Positions 716 through 21,127 of a stretch of DNA of 64,000 nt are shown piece after piece. The translations under genes and the position numbers were made by a program. The notes under the pieces were generated by a model, which was given only the letters and a program-made list of their open reading frames with translations, did not search any database and had not been told where the DNA came from. Origin of the DNA: Verrucomicrobia bacterium UBA2281 (GTDB taxonomy: Bacteria; Verrucomicrobiota; Kiritimatiellia; CAIQIC01; Lenti-01); the NCBI GenBank assembly GCA_002347655.1, contig DDWR01000024.1, forward strand, positions 140,971 to 204,970. The letters are read 5' to 3'. How positions within the stretch are numbered: the stretch's first letter is position 1; each line of letters begins with the position of its first letter.

Positions 716-1059
716 TTCCTCCTGCTTCGACAGGATGAACTGGATTCTTCAGGATTCACAGGATTCCTCCCCCGCCTGAGTCCCGATTTTTGCCCCCCCT
801 TATAACCTCAACTGTCTTCCCGGCCATTCTGCGGCGAGAGGCGCATCTGCGATTCGGTGCCCCATTGGGGTCATATTGAGCGAAGGCGCGCCGCGCCGGA
901 GTCGAAATATCTGGGCACAATCCCGATGGCCAGCCTATGGGAACGGGCTGAGAACCCTCGACCCTCCTTCGCGCAAGGCTCCGGCGGGCAGGCAAGGCTC
1001 GGGATGACAGCCATGAATGATTAGGGCTTTTTGCAGGCATGCACCGAATCGCAGATGCG

Positions 1060-1084
1060 CACTGCGGCGAGCGCAGCCTTTTTC
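1060..1084 (+). terminator. Rho-independent terminator-like hairpin (CTGCG-gcgag-CGCAG followed by CC TTTTT) at the left edge of the low-GC R-M island
   Basis: GC stem and T-tract read directly from the sequence. GC content drops immediately downstream. Confidence 0.4.
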
Positions 1085-1094
1085 AGACGTTGAG

Positions 1095-2042
1095 TTAACC
1101 TAGTGATATCTTAAGGCTTGGATCCGTCTCGCACTCCTCGACTATCCCATTGTACGCCTCAACTAGCCTCCCGAGCGATCCCGAACGATCTTGGTTCTGG
1201 AATCCAATCCACTCGTAAACGTTGGTTGCCAAAAACTGACTGATTTCCAGTACGTCGATACGTCCTGAAATTCCTTCATTGTCGGCCAGCGCCTTGACCC
1301 CGCCGGTTCCGGCTTCGGTCGTGACAATCAAAGGGCGTAGCCCCTCTTGAAGATTGCGCTTGCACTTCCGGATCAAGGCATCGCTTGGGGCAACCGTGAC
1401 GTGAATGGCCGTGTCGCCGATTAAGAAATCACCTTTTGCGTGCACGGATGCATCCGCGGCAGAAAAACACTTGTGCTCCACTTTCGCCCGTGGAAGCGCC
1501 AACGAAAGCTTTGCCCCCACAAGATGCTCCAACACGGCGCCGACCACCATTGTTCCGCCGCTCTTCCTTTGCCTATCCAAGGCCAGCCCCAAAAGGTCCG
1601 CGACGATTTGACGCAAAGATGCTGATACATCCGCCTTAACTTTTATAGGCTGAGCGGCAAAATATGCTTTTACTTGCTCGATCCACCAGAGCTCTATTGC
1701 CGCATAATCAATCTTCGCCTGGCGTGCTAATTGATTAAGAAATGAAACATAAGCCCGCATTAAAGCCATACTCCCTCGACTAGTGCGTCCGCCTTCTTCC
1801 GAAAGGACGCGCTCTATGCCGTGTTCTTTTAGGATTGACTTAATCGCAGCGCCGCTTAGCCCGGCAACCTGCCCTTTTTTCCCCGTTAAAAACGAATCAG
1901 GAGAAAGAGGCATTGAAAGTCTGGATGCCATTCGGGTCAGAATAATAACCGTTGAGAGCGGCCCCTTGCCTTTCACAAAGTTATCTTCAGCAAACTTCGC
2001 AAGTAACGAGATGAGTTTTTGATTAGACGGCATTAGGAACAC
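1095..2042 (-). CDS. Putative type II restriction endonuclease (R subunit of the C-M-R cassette)
   Basis: 315-aa ORF in low-GC DNA immediately downstream of, and co-oriented with, the C5 methyltransferase (9-nt gap). Contains D...E-H-K / GD...E-x-K-like segments (KVEHKCFSAADASVHAKGDFLIGD). No family recognised with certainty. Confidence 0.45.
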   Translation of the reverse strand: MFLMPSNQKLISLLAKFAEDNFVKGKGPLSTVIILTRMASRLSMPLSPDSFLTGKKGQVAGLSGAAIKSILKEHGIERVLSEEGGRTSRGSMALMRAYVSFLNQLARQAKIDYAAIELWWIEQVKAYFAAQPIKVKADVSASLRQIVADLLGLALDRQRKSGGTMVVGAVLEHLVGAKLSLALPRAKVEHKCFSAADASVHAKGDFLIGDTAIHVTVAPSDALIRKCKRNLQEGLRPLIVTTEAGTGGVKALADNEGISGRIDVLEISQFLATNVYEWIGFQNQDRSGSLGRLVEAYNGIVEECETDPSLKISLG

Positions 2043-2050
2043 CCTTCATT

Positions 2051-3196
2051 TTAAGAGCTCTCTTTGCTTGCGATCTCATGCGCCAATGGATTTAGATAGT
2101 TATCGGCAATCCAATTGATTACAGGGACACATACTGCATCGCCAAATCCATACAACGCCTTGTCCAGCGCCACCTCTTTTAGACTGAACTCATCGGCCCC
2201 CATGAGTCGGGCGCATTCGCGCGCCGTCAACAAGCGCACTTTGACTTGATTGAAGCCAGCCTGAATTAGAATTTGCTTTGCGCTCCCGCCCTTAGGTGTC
2301 CTTAAACACCCCGCGATCCCATCCGTGCGAAGTTCGGCTTGAGACTTTCCATTTCGCACGCGGCGGAAAGCAGTACCATAGGACCACTTTCTCTGTCCCA
2401 TCATGGCCTTAAGTGCGGCTGCGTGCTTAACGCTCATTTGACTTAATAGATAATTAGTGCGCTTCTCGTTCCACCATATGGATGAATCATGTGGAACCGG
2501 CTCAATAATATCCTTCAACGTCTTCTCGGATTTTATCGGCGGCTCAGGAGTGGTTCTTATATGCCAAGAGATTTCCGGGTGTGAATATATGAATTCTGCC
2601 AACGCCCTAGGCCGAAGAGGTCCCTCATAGAAAACGGGGGTTTCGCGCACGATTTCGCAATATGGCTTACTCGGCAACGAACCAATTACAAAGAGCCGCA
2701 CCCTGCTTTGCGGCACAAAACGCGCAGCATCAATGATAAGAGCATCAACTTCATAGCCCAGCTCGTTCAATGCGAGCAACGCAGATTGAAAGTCTTTTCC
2801 GCCCTTCGAGGTCATGAATCCAACAACATTTTCAAGCATTACCAGCTTAGGTCTTCTTGGGCCAAGAGCTTCAAGGACGCGAATGAACCCCCAATAAGCA
2901 GATGATTGCTTTCCGCTTAAACCCATTCGCATTCCCGCCAACGATAAATCCGTGCAAGGAAATGATGCCGTTGCCAGTGTGGCCGCGGGAATTTTACTCG
3001 CATCAATTTTGTGGATGTCGTCGCATACAAAATGGGAAACAGCATCGGCAAAATGCCCGTCGTATAGAGCCTTCTTCTCTTCAGATATGTCGTTGGCGAA
3101 TACAACTTTCCACCCCGATTTTTCTAGTCCAAGGCGGACAAGTCCAATCCCAGCAAAATACTCTGCAACAGTTTTTTGTGTTTGCTCAGAAGCCAT
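2051..3196 (-). CDS. DNA (cytosine-5)-methyltransferase (Dcm-family type II MTase)
   Basis: Motif I FAGIGL, motif IV ASFPCTDLSLAG (catalytic PC), motif VI ENVVGF, and a C-terminal TRD. Low GC. Its start codon is 1 nt after the C-protein stop. Confidence 0.9.
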   Translation of the reverse strand: MASEQTQKTVAEYFAGIGLVRLGLEKSGWKVVFANDISEEKKALYDGHFADAVSHFVCDDIHKIDASKIPAATLATASFPCTDLSLAGMRMGLSGKQSSAYWGFIRVLEALGPRRPKLVMLENVVGFMTSKGGKDFQSALLALNELGYEVDALIIDAARFVPQSRVRLFVIGSLPSKPYCEIVRETPVFYEGPLRPRALAEFIYSHPEISWHIRTTPEPPIKSEKTLKDIIEPVPHDSSIWWNEKRTNYLLSQMSVKHAAALKAMMGQRKWSYGTAFRRVRNGKSQAELRTDGIAGCLRTPKGGSAKQILIQAGFNQVKVRLLTARECARLMGADEFSLKEVALDKALYGFGDAVCVPVINWIADNYLNPLAHEIASKESS

Positions 3197-3197
3197 G

Positions 3198-3422
3198 TTA
3201 TCGGCTTTTCCTTTCGATCTTTGCTACGAGATCGGAAGCTTTCAGTCCAAGGGCGAGCGCAATCTTGAAAATGGCTTTCAAGGTCGGGCTTTTCTTCCCC
3301 CGTTCAAGCTGGCTGATGTAGGTGCGGTGGTAGCCGCTTTCGAAGCCCAATTTTTCCTGCGTCAGGCCGCTTTTCTCGCGGGCTTTTTGCAGTTCTTCCC
3401 CGAACGCTTTTTCCAAAGTCAT
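3198..3422 (-). CDS. Controller (C) protein, XRE-family HTH regulator of the R-M system
   Basis: 74 aa with HTH segment LTQEKLGFESGYHRTYISQLERGKKSPTLKAIFKIALALG. Sits immediately upstream of, and translationally coupled to, the MTase (TAA-c-ATG). RBS AGGAAT upstream. Confidence 0.8.
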   Translation of the reverse strand: MTLEKAFGEELQKAREKSGLTQEKLGFESGYHRTYISQLERGKKSPTLKAIFKIALALGLKASDLVAKIERKSR

Positions 3423-3514
3423 GGTGTATTCCTAGAGCGCTTATTAAACCGCGCTGAACACTATTGATCTACAGACCATAGTATTCATTTCGCCGCTGAG
3501 AGCCTCTATTCATG

Positions 3515-3540
3515 GACGATAAGTCCATGGACGATGAGTC
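3515..3540 (-). promoter_or_regulatory. Tandem C-box operator (GACTCATCGTC-catg-GACTTATCGTC on the C-gene strand)
   Basis: Two 11-bp GACT-N3-(A/C)GTC boxes separated by 4 bp, about 95 bp upstream of the C-protein start. Closely matches known C-box consensus sites (GACTnnnAGTC pairs). Confidence 0.6.
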
Positions 3541-3660
3541 AGGTCGTCGCCCCCATTCGCGCTATTCCCGCCACGGGCGGGTAAGCCTTCCATTCGTAGT
3601 TGGCGCCCGTCCCCGCCCCCATCCTGTCCATCCTGTAAATCCTGTCTATGCTCCCCCGGA

Positions 3661-4230
3661 TTGCCTTCCGGGGCGGGGCGTGCCAGAGTGGGGGCCATGT
3701 CGGCGCCGGTTTCATTCACGACCCGCTATATCCGCGACGAGGAGCACTATGCGGAGGTGCTGCTGCGCGCGCGGGAGGCGAAGAAAACGCTCTGGATCGG
3801 CACGGCGGACCTGAAGGACGTCTTCGTGATGCGCGGCAAGCGCGCGCGGCCGTTCCTCGGCGAGCTGGCCGAGCTGATCGAACGGGGCGTGAGCGTCCGC
3901 CTGATCCACGCCAAGGAGCCCGGGCCCAATTTCCGGCGGGATTTCGACCGCTACCCCATCCTCGCGAGGGGCCTGGAACGGGTGCTGTGTCCGCGGGTGC
4001 ACTTCAAGCTGCTGATCGTCGACTTGCAGGCGGCCTATATCGGCTCCGCGAACCTGACCGGCGCGGGCATCGGCATGAAGAGCGACGGCAAGCGCAATTT
4101 CGAGGCGGGGATCTGGACGAACGAGCCGCAGCTGGTGGCCGCAGCCGTGGCGCAGTTCGATGCGGTCTGGATGGGCGCGCCGTGCGACGGCTGCCGGCGG
4201 AAGGAATTTTGCCGCGACGGGATCGAGTAG
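3661..4230 (+). CDS. Phospholipase D/Nuc-family (HKD) nuclease-like protein
   Basis: HKD motif HFKLLIVD...GSANLTGAG. TTG start at 3661 or ATG at 3697. Host-like GC. Located next to the R-M island. Confidence 0.8.
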   Translation: MPSGAGRARVGAMSAPVSFTTRYIRDEEHYAEVLLRAREAKKTLWIGTADLKDVFVMRGKRARPFLGELAELIERGVSVRLIHAKEPGPNFRRDFDRYPILARGLERVLCPRVHFKLLIVDLQAAYIGSANLTGAGIGMKSDGKRNFEAGIWTNEPQLVAAAVAQFDAVWMGAPCDGCRRKEFCRDGIE

Positions 4231-4332
4231 CCGGAAACGGGAAAACAGCCCCGGCCCCAACGGGGCCGGCTACAGGAAATCCAAGGCGGTGGGGTCCGCC
4301 CGAACGAAATCCTCCGGAAATCCGAAACGGGC

Positions 4333-6651
4333 CTAGTAGGTGTAGCCGATGGTGAAGCTGAAGCGGCCGCTGTCGCCGAGGTAGTCGTCGGTGTTGATGG
4401 GCCAGGCGTAGTCGAGCTGGATGGGGAAACCGGGGAAGTCGAAGCGGACGCCAATGCCGTAGCCGTCGCAGTATTCGCCGTCGCCCGTCGCGGGATTCTC
4501 GAGGTCCTCCTCGAACACGTCCTGCCAGACGATGCCGCCGTCGTAGAAGACCGCGAGGCGGATCTTCTCGAACACGGGGATGGTGTATTCGGCGGTGAGG
4601 GTCGCGGCGGAGCGGCCGCCGAGGGCTTCGCGGTCTTCGTCCTTCGGGCCGACCTTGCGATATTTGAAGGCGCGCACGGTGCGGGGGCCGCCCATGAACA
4701 GGCGGTCGAAGATCGGCACGCGGTCGGAATCGCCGTATTCCTCGATCATCGATCCCCAGCCGCGCAGGCTCAGGACGTGGTCGAACCACAGCGGGAAATA
4801 CTGGGCGGCGCGGAGCTGGAACTGGTAGGTATCGGTATCGCCGGCGAACGGCCCGCCGGCGAGCGTGGCGGCGACGGACCCGCGGAACCCGCGGGTGGCG
4901 ACGAACGTGCTGTCGCGGGTGTCGCGGATGAGTTCGACGGTGCCGTAGCTCTTCAGGCGGCCGCCGCCTTCCATCTGGATCAGTTCGCTGGCGTTGGTCG
5001 AGACGTCGTTGATGTCGATGTTTTCCAGGCCGTAGATCCAGTTGATGCGGTTGAAGCTGCGCAGGGGCTTGCCGAGGGTCAGGGCGCCGCCGGTGGTCAG
5101 CTGGTCGTACTCGTCGCTGTAGTAGCGGGCGTCGCGGCGGAACAGGTCCAGCCCGAGGGAGAGCCGCCGGTTCAGGAACCACGGCTCGACCAAAGACAGT
5201 TCCAGGTCGGTGCGCGAGCTGCCGATCTGGGCGCGCAGGCGCAGTTTCTGGCCGCCGCCGACCGGCCGCGGCCAGCCGAACAGGTCGAAGTTGCCCTGCG
5301 AGAGCTCCACGTAGCCGATGACGTTGTCGATGCTCGACACGCCGACGCCGACCATGAACTGGCCGGTGCGCTGTTCTTCGAGGTCGAAGACGAGGTTGAA
5401 GCGGTTGGAGACGGCGGTGTCTTCCGGATAGGCGTTGACGTAGGAGAAATAGCCCAGGTTCTGCAGGCGCCGCTGGCTGGAGCGGACCTTGACTTCGTTG
5501 TAGATCTCGCCGGGCGCGACGCCGATTTCGCGCCGGACGACCTTGTCCTGGGTCTGGGCGTTGCCGCGGATGTCGACGTTCTGGATGTAGGCCAAGGCGC
5601 CTTCGCGGATATGGTAGGCCACGGCGGCGGTGGCCGCGTTCGTGTCCAGGACGACGCGCGGGGCGACGTCGGTCTTGATGTAGCCGCGCGAGCCGTAGAA
5701 ATCGCGGAGGTTCTGCGCGCCGCGGTCGAGGCCGGCGAGCGCGGCGACGGCGCCGACCGGCACGGCGACGGCGCGGGCCATTTCGTTCGTGGGGAACAGG
5801 GTCGCGCCGTCGATCCGCCAGGCGCCCAGCTTGTAGAGCGGACCTTCGGCGACCGCGAAGGTCACGTCGATCTTCTTGCGGCCGACGTAGGCGATCGTTG
5901 GCTCGCCGACGACGGCGCCGAGATAGCCTCTGTCCATGAACACCTTGCGGATGGCCTCGCGGTCGGCCGCCAGACGGCCGGGCTCGTACATGCCGTCGCT
6001 GGTGAAGATGGACAGCCAATTGGACTGCCGCTGCATCATGACCTTGCGCAAATCGCGCGCGGAGACGTGGCGGTTGCCCCGGAAGCGGATCTTGCGGACG
6101 ATGGCGGGCTTGCCTTCGTCCACGGCCAGATCGACGTCGGCGAACTCGGGCTGGTCCTCGACGGGCCGGATGGTCCAGGTCACCTGGGCGTCGGGATAGT
6201 ATTCCTTGCGGTAGTGCTCGCGGACTTTCTGGGCCTTGAGGCCGAGGAGGGCGTCGTCGACGCGGTCGCCCGAGCCGATTTCCATCAGGGTGCGCACCTT
6301 CTTGTTGCCGACATGGTCCGCGCCCGCCACGGCGAGGCGGCGGATCCTGGGTTTGCCGGCCACGTGGAAGACGAGGATGGCCCCGCCGTCCGCCGCCGGC
6401 TCCAGACGGGCCTCGGCATAGGCGTACATGCCCGATTTCTGCAGCGCGCGGATGTCTTCGGAGAGCGCCGGGCGGTCGAGTTCGCGGCCGACGCGGGCGC
6501 TGACCTGCGCGAGCACCTGCTCCGCGTTGATCGGCACGGGGCCGATCGGCACGACGCGGACGTCCCGGATCGGGGCGGCGGCGGCCGCCGCCGCCCACGC
6601 GCCGAACACGGCCGCTGCGCAAACCCGGCGAAACAGGCGAAACCGGCTCAT
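4333..6651 (-). CDS. bamA: Outer membrane protein assembly factor BamA
   Basis: Signal peptide [31 protein letters not shown]-like N-terminal region and a C-terminal Omp85 barrel ending ...FSFTIGYTY. The six-frame track fuses it with upstream junk; the true ATG at 6651 overlaps the dnaB stop (ATGA). Confidence 0.9.
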   Translation of the reverse strand: MSRFRLFRRVCAAAVFGAWAAAAAAAPIRDVRVVPIGPVPINAEQVLAQVSARVGRELDRPALSEDIRALQKSGMYAYAEARLEPAADGGAILVFHVAGKPRIRRLAVAGADHVGNKKVRTLMEIGSGDRVDDALLGLKAQKVREHYRKEYYPDAQVTWTIRPVEDQPEFADVDLAVDEGKPAIVRKIRFRGNRHVSARDLRKVMMQRQSNWLSIFTSDGMYEPGRLAADREAIRKVFMDRGYLGAVVGEPTIAYVGRKKIDVTFAVAEGPLYKLGAWRIDGATLFPTNEMARAVAVPVGAVAALAGLDRGAQNLRDFYGSRGYIKTDVAPRVVLDTNAATAAVAYHIREGALAYIQNVDIRGNAQTQDKVVRREIGVAPGEIYNEVKVRSSQRRLQNLGYFSYVNAYPEDTAVSNRFNLVFDLEEQRTGQFMVGVGVSSIDNVIGYVELSQGNFDLFGWPRPVGGGQKLRLRAQIGSSRTDLELSLVEPWFLNRRLSLGLDLFRRDARYYSDEYDQLTTGGALTLGKPLRSFNRINWIYGLENIDINDVSTNASELIQMEGGGRLKSYGTVELIRDTRDSTFVATRGFRGSVAATLAGGPFAGDTDTYQFQLRAAQYFPLWFDHVLSLRGWGSMIEEYGDSDRVPIFDRLFMGGPRTVRAFKYRKVGPKDEDREALGGRSAATLTAEYTIPVFEKIRLAVFYDGGIVWQDVFEEDLENPATGDGEYCDGYGIGVRFDFPGFPIQLDYAWPINTDDYLGDSGRFSFTIGYTY

Positions 6652-11904: not shown

Positions 11905-11978
11905 TGGTTGCCCGACTAGGATTTGAACCTAGACTCTGGCCTCCAAAGGGCCGTGTGCTGCCATTACACCATCGGGCA
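11905..11978 (-). tRNA. tRNA-Gln (anticodon UUG), CCA encoded
   Basis: Read by hand as TGCCCGATGGTGTAATGGCAGCACACGGCCCTTTGGAGGCCAGAGTCTAGGTTCAAATCCTAGTCGGGCAACCA. 7-bp acceptor stem, GGTGTAATGG D-loop, anticodon loop CTTTGGA, and a GGTTCAAATCC T-arm. Confidence 0.8.
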
Positions 11979-14126: not shown

Positions 14127-14481
14127 TGCCGCGCATCTCGGAGCGGCACCCTGGCGGCATTGCGGCTTTCATTTTTCTCTAGCTTGGCGGCCGGGTTTCT
14201 GCGATATATTCGGCAGTTCCGCGGCGATTCTCGGCTCGGACGTTGTTCTTTCCATTTTGCGTTTTGAAGTCTTCCCCGCGCGAGCGGGGAGTCGTTCTAA
14301 TCGAAAACCAGCAATTTTCTTATTCCAGAACGAGACTTGTGGACGCGCCCAACCCTGGGCGCGGCCCCTTGTCTTGTGTTCTGGAAAGGGGCTTGCTGGT
14401 CCCTCGATTAGGGCATGGGCCTGGGGTTCGCGCCTCTTTTCATTTCGTGCGGCACCGGGTCCATGCCACCCATTCGGGAGC

Positions 14482-17400
14482 ATGCCCATGAGAAATCCGA
14501 GGATGAAAAACAAGCCCGCCATCGGGATCGGAATCACTGCTGCCATCGCCGCGCTTGGGCTTGTGGCTTTGGCCTCGGATTCCGCCCGGACCGAAAAGCC
14601 GGCCGCCGTGGATGCCCAGGAATACGCCGATTTCATGGCGAACGAAGCGCTGGACGTGCAGGACCTGGCGGAAGGCGCGGAACTCCAGCGCCGGACGTTC
14701 AACCGCATGACGCCGCCGGGCCTTTCCTGGGTCCAGCCGATGTTTCCTCTCACGGTTCCGTTCGACGCCGCGAATTTCAACGAGAAGTTCCTCGACGAGC
14801 TGCTGGGCGAGGACCGGAACAGCGTGGCGGTCTATCCGCTGACCTTGGCGCTCGATCCCAAGACCCGCGAGACTTGGATCTATAACGCCGAGGGCAAACC
14901 GATCGCCGCGCTGCCGCCGGAAAAGATTTCCCGGGCGTGGCCCGAGGGTTCCGATCCAGCCCGGGTGGTCTTGCGGCTGGATCTGTTGCCCGCCGAGGAC
15001 GTGGAGCCGTACCTGTACGTGGAGGATCGCATGGCCGAAACCGTCTCCGCTTTTTCCGAAAAAGCGGCCAAGTCCGCGCGGAAAGAAGCCGTCGCCAAGA
15101 GCGGCCTGTCCGGCGGGCAGTTCGGATTTGCCGATGCCCGGAAACTGACCAACGGGAACTTCCGGCTGACGGTGACGAACGGGCCGGCTGCGGCGGAAAT
15201 CTTCTCCTACACGATCTGGCACACCTCGTCGGTGGTGGTCTCCACTTGGACCAACGACTTGGACGAGGTCGTCGTGAGCACGAATGTCGTCTGGACGCCC
15301 GTGTCCCCGCCGTATGCCGGGCTGGAAAGCGCATGGGAAGTCGAAACGACGAACTTGCTTCTGACCAACGGCGTGGGCATTTGGGAGGACGCAAGCGCCA
15401 CCGGCAGCGCCCGGGTGCGATTCTACGGGACCACCCAAAGGGCGGATTCCGACGAAGACGGCTTGACCGACGGCGCGGAAATCTTCCTGCACCGTACCGA
15501 TCCATCCTTGTCCGACACCGATGGCGACGGCATGCCCGACGGCTGGGAGGTGACTTACGGCTTGAATGCCCGTTCCGGCCTCGACGAATCCTTGGTCGGC
15601 TGGTGGAAGCTGGACGACGGCGCGGGCTCCAACGCCGTCAATTCCGCCCAGGACGCCTACCATGGTGAACTGGTGGGATTTTCCGGTTTGGGCGGCGGCT
15701 GGACGGGCGACGGGTGTTTAGGCGGCGCCCTGCGATTCGACGGCATCGACGACTGGGTGCGGATTGCGCAGGATCCGGCGATGCTGACGGGTGGTCCCTT
15801 CACCGTGAGCGCGCAGGTGTGGCTGGACCCGGATTGTGCCTCGGCTTGGCCCGAAGCGGTCGCCGATTACGAGGCCTCGACCTATAACGGCTATTGCCTC
15901 GGCTTCAACGAAAACCGCGCCTACGCCATGGTGGGGCCGTACGGCTGGCTCATGGACTCGAACGCGCTCGCGGGCCGGTGGGTCTGGACGGCGCTGGAAT
16001 ACGACGGCGCGCAGATGCGGCTCTATCTCGACGGCGTTTTGGCGGGAGCGACGCCCGTCGCGTTCGTACCAGCGACGAACGGATTTTTCGCCATCGGCAA
16101 CGGACAGGACGACAGCTTCGGCTCCGAATTCTGGAAAGGCCGGATCGACGACGTGCGCCTGTACCGGGCGGTCCTCGGCACGAACGGTCTCGCCGGCATG
16201 TACGACGCGCAGGCGGACCCGGACGGCGATGGCTGGCTCAACCTTCAAGAAAGCGCGCACGGCACCGATCCGTTCCGCGCGGACACGGATGAAGACGGCA
16301 TTTCCGACGGCGACGATCCCGAACCCCTCGTGGCCAATCAGGAACCGATCATGCGGTTCCGGCATCCGCTGGACGGCCAGACGTTCCTCGGCCCGGCCAA
16401 AATCGAACTGAGCAGCGAGTGGATCTACGGCACGCAACCGCCCTCGCAGGCGGTTTATCGGATCGAATCGCTGCTCGACGGCGCCACGAACGAGATCGCG
16501 GTCGCCGCCGGAAGCGATCAGAAAACGAACTGGTACGCGCCTCCGGGGGTCTTCCGCTTGACGGTCCGGGGTGTGGATGCGGGCGGACGGACGGGCGAAA
16601 CGCGCCGGGTGGACGTCGCCGTGGCGGAGAGCGGTTCGTTCGCGGCGCTGACGGCCGCCGAAAAACAAACCGTTCTGGAAAACGGGCCCCGGGCCGTCGA
16701 AGGAGTGGAAGAATGGACGTACGGATATTCTGGCGCGCGGACCGGCAGCCTGCCCGTCGCCGCGGCCGGCAGCCGCATCCTTGCGGGGTTTGCCCAAGCG
16801 ACCAATTTCACCGCCGTGCCGGTGAGCAACTCGTATCTGGACGTTGACTACCATGATCGCGACGCGACGTATGCGACGGTCGTGCCTGGCAACACGCCGA
16901 CGACGAACCTGTTCGCCACCTTGTACGGCGCGGCGCGCTGGGGCGCGCGCCTGGAGGCGAATCTGCCCCCGCCATCGTCTCCGCGCGGCTGGCCGGTGGC
17001 TTACGACTCGTTCTTGGTTTTCGACCAGAATGAACGCGGCGAATGGGTCGGGAAGGTTTATCCCAGTTTGAACAACCTGGCCACGAATGATCCGCATGCC
17101 CTGCTGCATATGGGCTACGGGGCGGAACGCGATGCTTTCTTCTATAGAAACGGAAGCTACCAAGTGCTTCTGGGACCGACGAATTTCAATGGAGAGTTCG
17201 ACTACCGATTGGTCTTCGGCCTGAACAACGCAGGTCTCGTTGTCGGGGCCGGCCTCGATTACGAAGCGCATGGCGGAGGGATGTATCTGGGCCTGGAGGA
17301 ATTTCGTCCCATCGTCTACGGAATCGGCCAAACCGGAACGGTACTGGCGGTCAGCACGCAGGCGATAGGCGGCGCGGCCTATGCGGTCAACGACAAGGGC

Positions 17401-19815
17401 GTCATCGTCGGCTGCGAGATCGCATCCAACGAAATGCCCCGCGCCGTCCGATGGGTGAATGGCCAGGTCGCCGCCGTGGGCGGCCTGACGGGGGCGACGC
17501 AAAGCGTCGCCTTCGATGTCGGCGAAGATGGAACCATCGCCGGCATGCAGAAAATCGGCGGTCAATGGCGACCGTTCCTGGCGGATGCCGCGAGCGGCGA
17601 CGCCTTTTCGCCCGCCATGCTTGGCGGCGTGGATTTCCGGGAATTCTGGCATGTCGGCAAGTTCGGCGCGTTGGGCTGGGGCGCCAGCAACGACGCCCAG
17701 CGCCTCTACTGGGTGTTCCCGGACGACGATCAGGACGGTTTTTCGGACGTCGTCGAGCAGGAGATCGTCGCTGCCGACCCGTTCGACACCCTGATCACCA
17801 TTGCGGGCGTGCTCGGAAGCGACGATTTCGACGGCGACGGGCTGACCAACGCTCAAGAGTGGGAAAAACAGAGCGATCCGGTGCTCAAAGACAGCGACGG
17901 CGACCGCCTTCCGGATGGGACCGATCCTTGGCCTTTGACCCGGCGGGACCGGGACGGCGACGGTTTGCCGGACGACTGGGAAACCCACCACGGCCTCAAC
18001 CCCTTGTCGGCGACGGGCGCGAATGGCGCTGCGGGCGACCCGGACGGCGATGGATTGGTCAATCGCCTGGAATTCGAACTGGATACCGTTCCGACCGGTC
18101 CAAATGGCCCGGCATTTCGGTTCCACCGGGATAAGCTCAATCAATTGCAGGTATCCATCGAAGACTCGCTGAATTGCCCGAACGGAACTCAGGATTCGCG
18201 GCAAATCGTCGAGCGCAGCATCCGGTTTGTAGAAATATTGGATACCAACTTGCCGCCGCTCGACATCAATTTCCTGGTGGGCGTCGCGGGACGGGTCGAA
18301 CGCCAGGATGCTGGTTATGACTTGGTCAGCGTCAACGGCGTTCGGGCCTTTGCCGGATCGAGCGAAGGCTTGGGCTGTGAAATGGCCGAAAAATCCGAAT
18401 GGGTTGTTGTGCCGGTGTCGGTGCCGCCGGGCGACCTCGTCTTGACTTACGATACATACGACGGTGCATTTCATACAGGGGCCTTTGCGAGAGTGACAGG
18501 AATCGCACTAACCCAGGCCGAGACGAACGTGCCTTCAGTGGAAGTCGCCGAGACCGAAATATTCGTCTGCGCGGGATGTACGAACGGTTGCACCGCGACA
18601 TTCCACTTGACGAACGGAAACCCCGTCGGTGTTTCTGCGGATTGGTACGGAGGACCCAGCAATGCCCTGCTCGGCACGGGTACGAGCGTGACCATCGACT
18701 ACACGGCATGGCCCCCCGCCAGCTACCGCATCGTCGCCTGCGCCACCGGCAACGTGGCCTATGCCGATGCCGCCGTGTTGCACGTACTTAAAGTGGAGAC
18801 CGCTTTCGCCGATCCGGACGACGCGAACTGGGCCGACCTGGCGGAAGAGAAAGTCATCCTCTCGGACAAGGACACCCGGATCAAGATCAAGGTCACGCCG
18901 CAACTGGCCGATTTGCAGACCATTTTCTATGCGATCGGCACGACCGTGAATATCAAAACTTCCGGGACCGCTCCGAACGGCCAGGACTTCACGATGACTT
19001 CGCAGAATACAACGCTGGTGCAGGAGAGCGGCTACTCCGAGTTGCGCGTTGCGCTGACGCGTAGCCAACTCATTTCCCTCGGCGTCTTGCCGAGTCAGGA
19101 GAGCGATTCCGTCACGGAGAAAGCTTGGTATGACACTGGTTTCGACACGGACGTGTCGTGGCCGAACCTTCTGGATGGCCACGCTTTCGACAATGGCATG
19201 TCTGCGGAAACGCGCGGGCAATGCACTCAGGCCATATATGGCGGGTTGGACAGCACGCCGCCCAACAGTCCGCTGGACAATTCCTTTTTCAAGGCCGGCG
19301 GGGTCGAAATCATCACGGCGGAATGCTGCTCGGGAGTGTCCGACAAACGCCAGCTCATGAACCAGGCGGATTATTTCTACTACTCCGGCCACGGGTGGAT
19401 CTTAACGGGCGCAGTCTATCCCGGCGGGCCATCTGATGTGAGCGGTTATTGGGACAAGGATTTGAATGTCATCATTTTTGCTGGATGTTCTGTTTTGGAC
19501 ATCAACGATTACAACGACAATACGAATGGTGCGGCCCATCTAGCTTCTCCAGGAAAACTGTGGGAGCCAATTGGCCCTGAATATTTTCTAGGCTATAACT
19601 GGAAAGCACCGACAGACCTGCAAAACTCAGATTCAATTATCTCAAGTTGGCTCTCAAATCGAGGGGCGCTTGGAAATATTGAGGCGTGGCGGGCGGCTAA
19701 CGACAACTCCAACGGACACAACGCCTGTGCAATCATTAAAAATACGAGCTACTTCTATTTTAGAAGAATACTGGGAATTCCCGTATGGACCGAAGTTCAA
19801 AAGGCGGATTGGTGA
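14482..19815 (+). CDS. Large secreted multidomain protein (about 1,777 aa) with TSP3-like Ca-binding repeats, a LamG domain, HAF-type repeats, and a foreign low-GC C-terminal module
   Basis: Signal peptide MKNKPAIGIGITAAIAALGLVALA. Several DxDxDG runs (DSDEDGLTDG, DTDGDGMPDGWE, DPDGDGWLNLQE, DTDEDGISDGDD, DSDGDRLPDG, DRDGDGLPDDWE, DPDGDGLVN). A LamG/ConA-like segment (GGALRFDGIDDWVRI...RLYLDGVLAG...GRIDDVRLYRAVL). A HAF-like segment (AAYAVNDKGVIVG...AVRWVNG). Alternative ATGs at 14488 and 14503. Confidence 0.85.
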   Translation: MPMRNPRMKNKPAIGIGITAAIAALGLVALASDSARTEKPAAVDAQEYADFMANEALDVQDLAEGAELQRRTFNRMTPPGLSWVQPMFPLTVPFDAANFNEKFLDELLGEDRNSVAVYPLTLALDPKTRETWIYNAEGKPIAALPPEKISRAWPEGSDPARVVLRLDLLPAEDVEPYLYVEDRMAETVSAFSEKAAKSARKEAVAKSGLSGGQFGFADARKLTNGNFRLTVTNGPAAAEIFSYTIWHTSSVVVSTWTNDLDEVVVSTNVVWTPVSPPYAGLESAWEVETTNLLLTNGVGIWEDASATGSARVRFYGTTQRADSDEDGLTDGAEIFLHRTDPSLSDTDGDGMPDGWEVTYGLNARSGLDESLVGWWKLDDGAGSNAVNSAQDAYHGELVGFSGLGGGWTGDGCLGGALRFDGIDDWVRIAQDPAMLTGGPFTVSAQVWLDPDCASAWPEAVADYEASTYNGYCLGFNENRAYAMVGPYGWLMDSNALAGRWVWTALEYDGAQMRLYLDGVLAGATPVAFVPATNGFFAIGNGQDDSFGSEFWKGRIDDVRLYRAVLGTNGLAGMYDAQADPDGDGWLNLQESAHGTDPFRADTDEDGISDGDDPEPLVANQEPIMRFRHPLDGQTFLGPAKIELSSEWIYGTQPPSQAVYRIESLLDGATNEIAVAAGSDQKTNWYAPPGVFRLTVRGVDAGGRTGETRRVDVAVAESGSFAALTAAEKQTVLENGPRAVEGVEEWTYGYSGARTGSLPVAAAGSRILAGFAQATNFTAVPVSNSYLDVDYHDRDATYATVVPGNTPTTNLFATLYGAARWGARLEANLPPPSSPRGWPVAYDSFLVFDQNERGEWVGKVYPSLNNLATNDPHALLHMGYGAERDAFFYRNGSYQVLLGPTNFNGEFDYRLVFGLNNAGLVVGAGLDYEAHGGGMYLGLEEFRPIVYGIGQTGTVLAVSTQAIGGAAYAVNDKGVIVGCEIASNEMPRAVRWVNGQVAAVGGLTGATQSVAFDVGEDGTIAGMQKIGGQWRPFLADAASGDAFSPAMLGGVDFREFWHVGKFGALGWGASNDAQRLYWVFPDDDQDGFSDVVEQEIVAADPFDTLITIAGVLGSDDFDGDGLTNAQEWEKQSDPVLKDSDGDRLPDGTDPWPLTRRDRDGDGLPDDWETHHGLNPLSATGANGAAGDPDGDGLVNRLEFELDTVPTGPNGPAFRFHRDKLNQLQVSIEDSLNCPNGTQDSRQIVERSIRFVEILDTNLPPLDINFLVGVAGRVERQDAGYDLVSVNGVRAFAGSSEGLGCEMAEKSEWVVVPVSVPPGDLVLTYDTYDGAFHTGAFARVTGIALTQAETNVPSVEVAETEIFVCAGCTNGCTATFHLTNGNPVGVSADWYGGPSNALLGTGTSVTIDYTAWPPASYRIVACATGNVAYADAAVLHVLKVETAFADPDDANWADLAEEKVILSDKDTRIKIKVTPQLADLQTIFYAIGTTVNIKTSGTAPNGQDFTMTSQNTTLVQESGYSELRVALTRSQLISLGVLPSQESDSVTEKAWYDTGFDTDVSWPNLLDGHAFDNGMSAETRGQCTQAIYGGLDSTPPNSPLDNSFFKAGGVEIITAECCSGVSDKRQLMNQADYFYYSGHGWILTGAVYPGGPSDVSGYWDKDLNVIIFAGCSVLDINDYNDNTNGAAHLASPGKLWEPIGPEYFLGYNWKAPTDLQNSDSIISSWLSNRGALGNIEAWRAANDNSNGHNACAIIKNTSYFYFRRILGIPVWTEVQKADW

Positions 19816-19819
19816 TCTT

Positions 19820-20512
19820 ATGAAAATGCACTATATATTTCTGTTGATTTTCCTGATGCTCGTCTCAATCGCGTTAGGACAACAGCCAGTCAAGATGGCC
19901 GATATTCTTAATACAGTTCGGCAGCAGGGCCATTTGAAAGATCCCGAAATTGCTATTTCCGCTGAAAAAATAATTGCGGGTTCTACTAACCTTGAAGAAG
20001 TGGGTGCGGCCAAGATGCTACTTGCGCAATCTCTGGCCGACTCTGGGAGCCATCGTTTGAATGCTGATGCTCTTGAAAGAGCAAGAACGCTTTGGGAAGA
20101 AGAGCTCCGCGACAGTCCGAGTTCTTGGGAAGGGCAGTTGGCTCGATTTAATCTGATCGCCGACCTCGGTACACAGGGGTCAAACTCGGCCATAATCGTT
20201 TCGGCTCAAGACGCCTTGAAAGACATGAACTTTGACATATTGGAAAATTCCTCTAGTCCTGTGTTGAAAACGCTTCGCCAGCTTTTTGGGGATCGGCCAA
20301 ACCTTTTCCGTGAAGGAATGAAGCTTGCCCTTGCAAACGCACTCTGCAATGAACTCCGCATTGCAGAAGCACGAAATGTTTTCGATACCATTACGGATCC
20401 TGAATACAAAAACATCATTCAATCCCGTATCGTTTTGGCGGAGAAGTCGCTGACCGAGAAAGAACATTTAGCCGCTGAACATCTGAAATCTGCCCCGGGT
20501 TCAGTTCCGTAG
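19820..20512 (+). CDS. Small secreted protein of unknown function (low-GC, candidate immunity/inhibitor partner of the upstream C-terminal module)
   Basis: 230 aa with an N-terminal signal/anchor MKMHYIFLLIFLMLVSIALGQQP. Start lies 4 nt after the upstream stop. GC about 46% against about 68% for the genome. Confidence 0.7.
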   Translation: MKMHYIFLLIFLMLVSIALGQQPVKMADILNTVRQQGHLKDPEIAISAEKIIAGSTNLEEVGAAKMLLAQSLADSGSHRLNADALERARTLWEEELRDSPSSWEGQLARFNLIADLGTQGSNSAIIVSAQDALKDMNFDILENSSSPVLKTLRQLFGDRPNLFREGMKLALANALCNELRIAEARNVFDTITDPEYKNIIQSRIVLAEKSLTEKEHLAAEHLKSAPGSVP

Positions 20513-21127
20513 TCTAGTGGTTTCTTGGAGGTCGGCGGGGTATTCCACGGTGTTGATAAATTCTTGGGGCGGTCGCCTCGCGTAAGCCGACCTTACACTC
20601 CGCTCGCTGCGCTCGCGGGTAGTAGGCGCGCCCAGGAGCCGCGCCAGCGCGGGGACGCGCTGTCACGTCTCCTGCGGGGCTGCGGGCGCGCCGCTGTCCC
20701 CCGTGCCGCTTCCCTTCGGGACGCGCGGCCCGTGGGTTTTGGCGCGGCGGGGAGGCGGTAGGCTGCGGTTTCCCCCGCCTTGGTTTTCCCCCCGGCGCCC
20801 CCCTTTCGGAGGCGCCCCCTTTCCGAGTGCGGATCATCGGCCGGGGGGCAAACCCATCCCCGTTCGGTCGCTTGCGCTCCCTCACTGGGGGCAACCGCAC
20901 GGCGGCCATTTTCGTTTATGGTGCCGCCGCCCTTCGGGTCCCCCCGCCGAAATCTCTCTGCCGCTTGCTGAACACCCCCATCCCCCCGCAGTCTTGCGGG
21001 GGCCGGTCGCGCGTACGCCGGCGGGACGCGTCCCGCACGGCTCCCGCGCTTCCACGGTCGCCGCCGACCCGCAACCAGTTTTCGCCGTCCTTGCCCTCGG
21101 GCGGGCGCTTGGGCTATCGTGCGCCCC

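Follow-up and report, generated by a model that had tools for sequence, protein, structure and literature searches.

A putative three-gene type II restriction-modification operon with an R.PluTI family endonuclease in a variable chromosomal slot of a Kiritimatiellia-like bacterium

Introduction

Which genes are carried by a short island of low GC content in the GC-rich chromosome of an uncultured Kiritimatiellia-like bacterium, and how did they come to lie there? The original prediction read the island as a horizontally acquired restriction-modification (R-M) cassette of type II, encoding a controller (C), a C5-cytosine DNA methyltransferase (M) and an endonuclease (R) of a possibly new fold. 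In the present analysis, the whole 64-kb stretch of DNA around the island (the window) was compared with protein families, solved structures and related loci. Judged from its sequence, with a probability of about 0.85, the region is an intact type II R-M operon of the three genes C, M and R, transcribed in this order from the minus strand, which consists of foreign DNA in a variable slot and is kept by purifying selection.

Composition and gene content of the cassette

The GC content of the cassette (1062–3545, ~2.5 kb) was determined to be 0.498, compared with 0.665 in the remaining window. In 300-nt windows, the values fell from 0.64–0.74 to 0.46–0.55 between ~1050 and ~3550 and then returned to 0.68. 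With respect to the 1-kb windows outside the cassette (mean 0.664, sd 0.035), the GC content of the cassette was lower by ~4–5 sd. The following features were predicted in the cassette and at its borders.

731–764, minus strand: inverted copy of the ATCCTGTNN array, on the ankyrin-gene side of the variable slot
839–1061, no strand: 224-nt MITE-like insert between the R and ankyrin genes, outside the R-M system
1095–2033, minus strand: R gene, R.PluTI family endonuclease (Pfam DUF4928), 312 aa
2051–3196, minus strand: M gene, C5-cytosine DNA methyltransferase, 381 aa
3198–3422, minus strand: C gene, 74-aa HTH controller protein, TAA stop 1 nt ahead of the M start codon
3455–3494, minus strand: 100% conserved block of 40 nt, between the C-box and the C gene
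3515–3540, minus strand: double C-box, putative operators OL and OR, GACTcatCGTCcatgGACTtatCGTC
3621–3653, plus strand: 9-nt repeats ATCCTGTNN in an array that borders the variable slot on the side of the PLD gene
3661–4230, plus strand: flanking PLD-like nuclease gene (PLDc_2) of host GC content (PF13091, E 1.8e-12)

The intergenic gaps were 1 nt between C and M and 17 nt between M and R, and the C-M junction was read as TAA-c-ATG with the C stop at 3200–3198 and the M ATG at 3196–3194. The GC drop, this junction and the three minus-strand open reading frames (ORFs), with their coordinates, had all been described in the original prediction and were found again. Its reading of the region as a C-M-R type II cassette of foreign composition is supported by the GC content and by the family matches of all three genes. 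As to the 315-aa endonuclease ORF, the frame exists from GTG 2042, but ATG 2033 is the most probable start codon, which gives a protein of 312 aa. This length was found in the homologues and in the public gene calls, and ATG 2033 follows the M stop at a distance of 17 nt and a Shine-Dalgarno-like motif, GAAGGG, at a distance of 8 nt.

Methyltransferase and endonuclease

The M protein matched PF00145 with an E value of 6.3e-46 and TIGR00675 with an E value of 1.6e-48, both above the cut-offs. The catalytic motifs I, IV (PC), VI (ENV), VIII (QxRxR), IX and X were checked and all of them were present (FAGIG at 14, SFPCTD, ENV at 122, QSRVR at 163, TARECA at 324 and GDAV at 352). The earlier assignment of the gene is upheld by these results, and M is confidently predicted to be a complete m5C methyltransferase. 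The protein shared 40% identity with M.PluTI over 367 aa (E 8e-89), and the target-recognition region was ~30% identical in a collinear alignment with few gaps.

The R protein had been described as matching no family. In contrast, the Pfam profile search returned PF16280 (DUF4928) with an E value of 2.9e-59 and 201 bits (cut-off 25), covering positions 22–305 of the 306 of the profile, and PADLOC REase_II was matched with an E value of 1.5e-41. The lead to a characterised enzyme was given by the UniRef name "Type IIF restriction enzyme" of a Xenorhabdus homologue. R.PluTI (plu0599) of Photorhabdus luminescens TT01 is a tetrameric type IIF endonuclease which cuts GGCGC^C, the DNA being protected by M.PluTI (plu0600) (Khan et al. 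2010, PMC2875022). R was 32% identical over 287 aa (E 2e-47) to the Photorhabdus protein P0432, which was recognised as R.PluTI by its genomic context (DapB / M / R / OLD-like / helicase / LytB), its organism and its residue numbering, with EGGRTSRG at 87–94 and D211/H220/T222 numbered as in PMC2875022.

The conserved residues named by Khan et al. are EGGRTSRG, D211, H220, T222, Y303, N304 and E311 (PMC2875022). In R, they were found as EGGRTSRG 81–88, D202, H211, T213, Y294, N295 and E302 (312-aa numbering), and these signature positions were at least 90% conserved among 68 diverse DUF4928 members. The prediction that the third gene encodes the endonuclease is borne out by the DUF4928 and R.PluTI family match, and R is, by homology to R.PluTI, an endonuclease of a known family.

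The R.PluTI family comprises 956 clusters at 50% identity from many phyla; a search of the phage collection gave no homologue. Only a passing mention of DUF4928 or PF16280 was met in the literature. The Pfam label is still DUF4928 despite the characterisation in 2010, and thousands of "DUF4928 family proteins" can be read as type II endonucleases. To this family, the window adds a diverged member under predicted C control from an uncultured bacterium of Kiritimatiellia-like affiliation, which is of little importance in itself.

The operons of other DUF4928 proteins were surveyed in 80 other genomes of many phyla, 78 of which were informative for the upstream gene. A same-strand m5C methyltransferase gene was located upstream in all 78 loci and was directly adjacent in 69. 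The usual layout is M-R-Vsr, with the Vsr gene right after R in 67 of the 80 loci. The M-R core is shared with the window, where no Vsr gene was detected over the 64 kb and an upstream C module is present instead. Two other roles of DUF4928 were considered and ruled out, PluTI being biochemically characterised. The first was that of a Vsr analogue; Vsr itself is encoded 3' of DUF4928 in the mentioned 67 loci. The second was a mere accessory role, raised by five loci in which M and DUF4928 are separated by another REase-like gene (PADLOC PDLC03501); these loci hold two endonuclease genes.

R could also be inactive or domesticated, leaving an orphan methyltransferase with a regulator. Such a state might be suspected from the missing Vsr gene and from the distant locus L033, where an open DUF4928 ORF stands beside a truncated methyltransferase gene, which shows that an R gene can persist, perhaps in an inactive form, without an intact partner. 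However, R of the window is full length, every family-invariant residue is kept, and its dN/dS in comparison with two relatives (dS ~0.57) was 0.07–0.12. Inactivity of R is thereby considered to be very improbable. The dN/dS of M was 0.08–0.09, and the values for C, M and R together ranged from 0.07 to 0.14, which corresponds to purifying selection on the entire operon.

Fold of the endonuclease

The sequences of PDB were searched with the R protein and with the 68-member profile and no match was obtained. The AlphaFold model of R had a pLDDT of 93.7. The sole significant PDB neighbour of the full-length model was DNA-bound R.EcoT38I (PDB 7EDB), a type IIP endonuclease, with a Foldseek E value of 5.9e-5 and a probability of 1.0; the sequence identity was 11% and the TM-score 0.35–0.38. 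A sequence-profile match between R and R.EcoT38I was absent. The C-terminal half of the model alone had no significant PDB neighbour (none better than E 0.08), and the matches to endonuclease I-like and MmcB-like proteins in a viral structure library were not significant. The link between the R family and R.EcoT38I is therefore tentative, and it may rest on the N-terminal half.

In the model of R, the secondary-structure order alpha-beta-beta-alpha-beta with GD202 and H211-x-T213 may be compatible with a degenerate PD-(D/E)XK motif in the putative catalytic half, as likewise noted for R.PluTI by Khan et al. (PMC2875022). The same authors had already asked whether the fold might be an unrecognised one (PMC2875022). 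Since the R.PluTI family is known and the neighbour of the model is itself a restriction enzyme, the suggestion of a new REase fold was not sustained. The model tentatively ties the R.PluTI family, the fold of which was unassigned in 2010, to the solved structure of R.EcoT38I. The EcoT38I system has also a REBASE-listed C protein (PMC2632904).

Comparison with PluTI and the recognition site

The window and the PluTI system share the endonuclease family with the signature EGGRTSRG, GD...HxT and YN, and a homologous M. In both, M precedes R in a tight operon of the same orientation and the operon occupies a variable chromosomal slot. The two systems differ in C, which comes with its C-box in the window and is missing from PluTI. 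They also differ in their surroundings: an OLD-like nuclease/helicase pair and remnants of IS elements are linked to PluTI, and the operon of the window has no such neighbours.

By analogy with PluTI, M would methylate the host genome at a specific sequence and R would cut this sequence when it is unmethylated, probably needing two sites at once. The specificity of PluTI and its tetrameric type IIF kinetics cannot be assumed for the enzymes of the window because the identities are too low (32% for R, 40% for M and ~30% for the target-recognition region). An isoschizomer of PluTI, recognising GGCGCC and cutting GGCGC^C, is accordingly a possible but rather unlikely reading; GGCGCC is a guess, and the sole informed one. 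This reading is suggested by R.PluTI being the only characterised homologue and by the collinearity of M with M.PluTI through the target-recognition region. The low identities of R and of this region speak against it, as does the grouping of the methyltransferases: those partnered with DUF4928 fell into at least two similarity groups in comparison with M of the window (E ~1e-150 and ~1e-60), and the PluTI-type M belongs to the distant one. The observed-to-expected ratio of GGCGCC in the host was 1.02, which gives no avoidance signal in favour of this site and is by itself uninformative.

Over the 61 kb of the window that lie outside the cassette, Markov observed-to-expected ratios were determined for every palindrome of 4 or 6 nt. 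Low values were obtained for GTCGAC, ACGCGT and GAGCTC, which were rejected as site candidates since they had the same densities in sister genomes without the system. No palindrome gave an avoidance signal that differed from these sister genomes, and site avoidance was of no use for a prediction of the site.

Controller protein and its operator

The C protein matched HTH_3 (E 5.8e-16) and PADLOC Control_protein (E 1.5e-17). Its closest solved relatives in the PDB search were C.BclI, C.AhdI and C.Esp1396I with the E values of 5e-12, 4.5e-9 and 7e-7, respectively. Together with the C-box of its own, these matches confirm the predicted 74-aa controller and place C with confidence among the controller-family HTH proteins. 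An AGGAA Shine-Dalgarno-like motif is located 5' of the C gene at 3429–3433.

In the C-box, 14 of the 16 symmetry positions match the PvuII-type consensus GACT-N3-AGTC-N4-GACT-N3-AGTC (PMC2175313). The box occurs once in the 64-kb window, with 0.1 occurrences expected by chance, and it is kept in five related loci (L004, L005, L007, L176 and L177). In the relatives, CGTA or CGTG stands in the central spacer, which reads CATG here. The 40-nt block at 3455–3494 is invariant in the window, L004, L005, L007 and L176, compared with differences of 14–18% in the coding DNA there. An imperfect palindrome, GAATACTAT-N13-ATAGTGTTC, was found in it at 3456–3486. The block may serve as core promoter, as leader or as second operator. 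It had no match in Rfam, and the promoter and terminator scan gave no convincing sigma-70-type promoter near the C-box.

With the PvuII-type circuits of C.PvuII, C.BclI, C.AhdI and C.Esp1396I, the C protein of the window has in common the small HTH form and the HRTYISxxERG recognition region. The operator is also of the same double form, GACT-N3-(A/C)GTC-N4-GACT-N3-(A/C)GTC, placed 5' of its own gene. The inner half-sites are AGTC in the PvuII-type C-box and CGTC here. The arrangement in PvuII is leaderless, whereas the C gene of the window has a Shine-Dalgarno-led start 90 nt downstream of the C-box. The classic order is C-R with a separately transcribed M, whereas M is located here between C and R. 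The window thus departs from the arrangement with C directly 5' of R and a separate M, and L176 has the same C-M-R layout as the window.

C would bind both operators and thereby first activate and then repress the transcription of the operon, as the PvuII-type circuits suggest. The genes are separated by no more than 1 and 17 nt, and C therefore probably controls all three of them and not R alone. The usual rationale of C control is that the methyltransferase is produced first and the endonuclease later. This rationale is not supported by the gene order of the window because M lies between C and R.

Relatives of the cassette and history of the slot

The slot lies between the PLD-like nuclease gene and an ankyrin-repeat gene of a Kiritimatiellia-like chromosome. 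The homology of the cassette to L004 stops at 3541, exactly at the C-box, and the junction on the R side is located between 771 and 1062, where the MITE-like insert sits. The low-GC edges at 1085 and 3540 are near these homology edges. The core homology to L176, L177 and L178 ends at 3621 and that to L176 resumes at 771. The inverted ATCCTGTNN arrays were the only repeats recognised at the edges of the slot; in sister genomes, the array on the side of the PLD gene belongs to a tandem repeat of 128 nt.

The same cassette was found in the same place in L004 and L007. Its divergence from these relatives (85–86%) equals that of the flanking genes (85–90%), and the cassette thus predates the split from the L004 and L007 lineages. 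In L176 and L177, the cores of which are ~90% identical, other cargo occupies the slot. An empty site was not met: a metagenome scan with the PLD-like protein yielded 80 loci, none of them syntenic, and the DnaB-cluster look-ups returned replaced sites and no truly empty one.

The MITE-like insert has perfect 20-nt terminal inverted repeats (841–860 and 1041–1060), is flanked by the 10-nt direct repeat CTGCGGCGAG (829–838 and 1062–1071) and is missing from the same spot in L007 and L004. From this comparison it is regarded as a later, independent insertion.

The sharp GC drop, the variable slot, the adjoining MITE-like insert and the inverted repeat arrays at both slot edges would be accounted for by a self-mobile island of the transposon-like or integrative kind which was acquired recently. 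However, no integrase, transposase or recombinase gene was detected between 772 and 3620, there is no adjacent tRNA (the nearest at 11905), the MITE-like insert came later and independently, and the cassette has diverged in step with its flanks. A self-mobile island is accordingly considered to be highly unlikely. The claimed horizontal acquisition is supported as to the foreign origin, given the composition and the variable slot. The cassette contains no mobility gene, and its arrival at this place was not recent.

The C module may have a history of its own. L176, with a core identity of 90.4%, encodes a C protein of 86% identity, and both the C-box and the invariant 40-nt block of the window are present there. 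The genes behind C are an unrelated pair, a 543-aa m5C methyltransferase and a MvaI/BcnI-family endonuclease, and the homology to the window breaks off at ~3210, 10 nt from the C stop. The L177 locus has a Schlafen-group-3 helicase gene, preceded by the gene of a C-like protein of 68% identity. None of the 80 other genomes with a DUF4928 system had a C homologue beside it, in line with their usual M-R-Vsr layout. These observations argue for separate histories of the C module and the M-R pair, in which C and C-box, a portable regulatory front end common to a family of cassettes in this slot, were joined to the pair by recombination at the 3' end of C and the three genes did not arrive together. 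On the other side, the GC content of C (0.51) is as low as that of M and R, L176 has diverged further in the C region (82%) than in the core (90%), and neither a recombination intermediate nor a donor was found. Because of the higher divergence of the L176 C region, whole C-containing cassettes could as well come from a common pool, C being their most conserved part. Separate histories are estimated to have somewhat less than an even chance.

The locus is a natural example of one controller module ahead of different cargo in sister genomes and could serve the study of C specificity and cassette replacement. As a speculation of low probability, the slot between the PLD-like and ankyrin genes might be a dedicated exchange site of defence cargo, bounded by the inverted ATCCTGTNN arrays, with C and C-box as the common regulated front end behind which the cargos are swapped. 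The cargos behind C would then be the PluTI-type R-M pair, the MvaI/BcnI-type R-M pair and the Schlafen-like helicase, with the junction at most 10 nt from the C stop. The persistent unit would be the controller module and not the R-M pair, and through the shared C specificity, incoming cassettes would replace the resident ones and not coexist with them.

The PLD-like gene at the edge of the slot, with a start at 3697 in the public gene calls, was ~90% identical at the nucleotide level across the sister genomes and gave weak PADLOC matches to MkoB and DrmC.

Composition and gene content of the cassette

In 300-nt windows the GC content falls from 0.64-0.74 to 0.46-0.55 across approximately 1050-3550 and returns to 0.68 after it, as the original prediction had described. 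The GC content of the cassette (1062-3545) is 0.498 versus 0.665 in the remainder of the window, where 1-kb windows gave a mean of 0.664 with the sd of 0.035. The three predicted minus-strand ORFs (1095-2042, 2051-3196, 3198-3422) are present and occupy the low-GC stretch, and the C stop and M start have the proposed TAA-c-ATG arrangement, with one nucleotide between them. The endonuclease frame is open over 1095-2042; its start was revised. The third gene most likely begins at ATG 2033, giving a product of 312 aa, because this start is used in all the homologues and also in the public annotation of the same contig. The codon lies 17 nt past the M stop and is preceded by a GAAGGG motif. A JGI metagenome contig, L092, matches the window at 100% identity. 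In the 90% cluster to which the DnaB of the window belongs, the proteins carry Kiritimatiellia names and one a Spartobacteria name, which places the host in the PVC group.

Genes of the cassette
1095-2033, minus strand: R gene, DUF4928/R.PluTI family, predicted 312 aa
2051-3196, minus strand: M gene, predicted m5C methyltransferase, PF00145
3198-3422, minus strand: C gene, predicted 74-aa HTH_3 controller

In profile searches M matched PF00145 with an E value of 6.3e-46 and also TIGR00675. The catalytic motifs I, IV (FPC), VI (ENV), VIII (QSRVR), IX and X were all found, which agrees with the m5C methyltransferase assignment. The 74-aa C protein matched HTH_3, and of all the solved structures the R-M controllers C.BclI (5e-12), C.AhdI (4.5e-9) and C.Esp1396I matched it best. 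PADLOC classified it as a control protein (E 1.5e-17), and the controller assignment was retained.

Selection and age of the cassette

The dN/dS values were determined against the cassettes of two comparison loci, L004 and L007, which are 85-87% identical to that of the window. C gave 0.14, M 0.08-0.09 and R 0.07-0.12, with dS of 0.28-0.69; all three genes are kept by selection. The proposed C-M-R type II cassette was borne out: the stretch is very probably a genuine and complete type II R-M cassette under C control, with a foreign composition.

In L004 and L007 the homologous cassette occupies the same position beside the same ankyrin-repeat gene, and in L007 also beside the same PLD-like gene. 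Since the place is shared and the divergence of the cassette (85-86% identity) equals that of the flanks (85-90%), the cassette is older than the split from the L004/L007 lineages. The predicted horizontal acquisition agrees with the foreign composition, but the cassette is not a recent arrival. No integrase or transposase was found in the cassette, nor a tRNA adjacent to it.

The endonuclease and its family

R matched Pfam DUF4928 over the full length (E 2.9e-59) and, in PADLOC, a model named "Type II restriction enzyme" (E 1.5e-41). The search with an Enterobacter homologue resulted in a Xenorhabdus protein with the UniRef name "Type IIF restriction enzyme" and the Photorhabdus protein P0432. 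The neighbourhood of P0432 consists of DapB, a m5C methyltransferase (379 aa), P0432 (331 aa), an OLD-like ATPase-TOPRIM, a helicase and LytB, which is the order reported for plu0602 to plu0594 by Khan et al. 2010 (PMC2875022). Its residues EGGRTSRG (87-94), D211, H220 and T222 follow the numbering of the same study (PMC2875022). Because both the gene context and the numbering agree, P0432 is R.PluTI.

Over 287 aa the R protein of the window and R.PluTI share 32% identity (E 2e-47), and the window protein contains all the signature residues: EGGRTSRG, D202, H211, T213, Y294-N295 and E302. M and M.PluTI share 40% identity and align collinearly through the target-recognition region. R belongs to the already characterised R.PluTI family, and the earlier statement that the endonuclease matched no nameable family was incorrect, while its assignment as an endonuclease was corroborated by the PADLOC model and the R.PluTI homology. 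Purified R.PluTI cleaves GGCGC^C, shows two-site (type IIF) behaviour and is blocked by M.PluTI (Khan et al. 2010, PMC2875022). The PluTI system is the only characterised relative, but its identity to the window system is low. At least two similarity groups can be distinguished among the methyltransferases paired with DUF4928, and site-avoidance analyses for the recognition sequence of the cassette gave no usable signal.

A new REase fold had been proposed for R. The idea itself is not new: according to Khan et al., no known nuclease fold could be assigned to the R.PluTI family, with a possible degenerate PD-(D/E)XK pattern, GD...Hx(T/S) (PMC2875022). The AlphaFold model of R (pLDDT 93.7, pTM 0.85) had a single significant PDB neighbour, DNA-bound R.EcoT38I (7EDB; E 5.9e-5, probability 1.0, TM 0.35-0.38), and the subsequent matches were noise. 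For the separately modelled C-terminal half (pLDDT 94), no PDB neighbour reached an E value below 0.08. The sequence-profile search of R against PDB gave no match and the structure search of a viral library no significant one. Judged by the model, R probably has a relative among the solved restriction enzymes; the new fold was not confirmed.

DUF4928 comprises more than 2000 matches in a 90%-clustered collection and 956 clusters at 50% identity. In a sample of 80 genomes from many phyla, each encoding a DUF4928 member, a m5C methyltransferase ORF was located directly upstream on the same strand in 69 and within 1.5 kb in a further 9. The linkage was therefore found in 78/78 informative loci; the other two contigs stop just ahead of the gene. 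A Vsr mismatch-endonuclease gene directly follows DUF4928 in 67 of the 80 loci, whereas none is present anywhere in the 64-kb window despite the m5C methyltransferase encoded there. The same M-DUF4928 pair was also detected on plasmids of Pseudomonas, Achromobacter, Burkholderia and Enterobacter.

Variants of the operon were observed. In some Acetobacteraceae and Rhizobiales (L045, L051, L052, L053, L061; for example, L052 2936-6334) the order is M, an extra 283-287-aa gene, DUF4928 and Vsr. The extra gene matches PDLC03501 (E 5.6e-118), another of the PADLOC models for type II endonucleases, and therefore two endonuclease-like genes accompany a single methyltransferase. At the L033 locus (3441-6438) the methyltransferase is reduced to 141 aa by a Mrr-like 331-aa gene. 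The DUF4928 ORF there remains open, carries about 10 inserted residues and is followed by Vsr; the locus has the appearance of a copy that is decaying or has been remodelled.

Regulatory region upstream of C

A double C-box, GACTcatCGTCcatgGACTtatCGTC, is located on the minus strand at 3540-3515. It agrees in 14 of 16 symmetry positions with the PvuII-type consensus GACT-N3-AGTC-N4-GACT-N3-AGTC (PMC2175313), and the 64 kb contain a single instance of the pattern, where 0.1 would be expected. The C-box is kept in L004, L005, L007, L176 and L177; the central spacer in the relatives is CGTA or CGTG, thus the conserved central GT is retained there. Between the C-box and the C start, a 40-nt block (3455-3494) is invariant in five loci, whereas the coding DNA shows 14-18% difference. 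An imperfect palindrome, GAATACTAT-N13-ATAGTGTTC, lies inside the block, for which a promoter scan and an Rfam search found no role. In contrast to the classic controller layout of C-R plus separate M, the window has C-M-R with near-zero gaps.

A 14-codon ORF (MNRGSQRRNEYYGL; 3471-3514, minus strand) starts with ATG just past the C-box and ends within the invariant block. It has the same length and frame in L004 and L176, which may be a coincidence.

The variable slot and its cargo

The most interesting by-product of the analysis was the variable slot between the PLD-like nuclease gene and the ankyrin-repeat gene, with its shared controller module. Two contigs from sister genomes, L176 and L177, share the core (DnaB-BamA-PLD) with the window at 90.4% identity and hold different cargo in the same slot. 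In L176 (15177-18232) the C-box and the invariant block recur together with a C protein 86% identical to that of the window; behind it lie the genes for a 543-aa m5C methyltransferase and a MvaI/BcnI-family endonuclease. The homology to the window breaks off near 3210, at a distance of 10 nt from the C stop, and picks up again at 771. In L177 (10587-12833) a C-like HTH protein (68% identical) precedes a Schlafen-group-3 helicase, and L007 carries an AbiEi/AbiEii pair (973-2309) besides its C-M-R cassette. These cargos are likewise low-GC. The histories of the C module and of the M-R pair may be separate, since a C homologue stands beside the DUF4928 system in none of the 80 other genomes.

Arrays of the 9-nt repeat ATCCTGTNN lie in inverted orientation exactly at both slot edges:
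731-764, minus strand: ATCCTGTNN array, ankyrin-side edge
3621-3653, plus strand: ATCCTGTNN array, PLD-side edge

In L176 (14435-14974; 4.2 copies, 92% match) and L177 (8796-9214) the PLD-side array is expanded into a tandem repeat of four or five 128-nt units, each containing a GC-rich hairpin.

A 224-nt MITE-like element (839-1061) is situated between the R and ankyrin genes. Its 20-nt terminal inverted repeats (GCGCATCTGCGATTCGGTGC; 841-860 and 1041-1060) are perfect, and a 10-nt direct repeat, CTGCGGCGAG, flanks it. Neither L007 nor L004 has the element at this position, and the 64 kb contain no second copy. The PLD-like nuclease gene (PLDc_2; 3661-4230, plus strand) has host GC and faces the C gene. 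Its product gave weak PADLOC matches to MkoB and DrmC, and the homologues are plentiful in rumen and other metagenomes in non-syntenic contexts. A second low-GC stretch of the window (0.44-0.53; about 19250-20550) spans a 280-aa ORF without a Pfam match (19670-20512) and the 3' end of a 1852-aa ORF (14257-19815) with Laminin_G_3 and TSP3 repeats.
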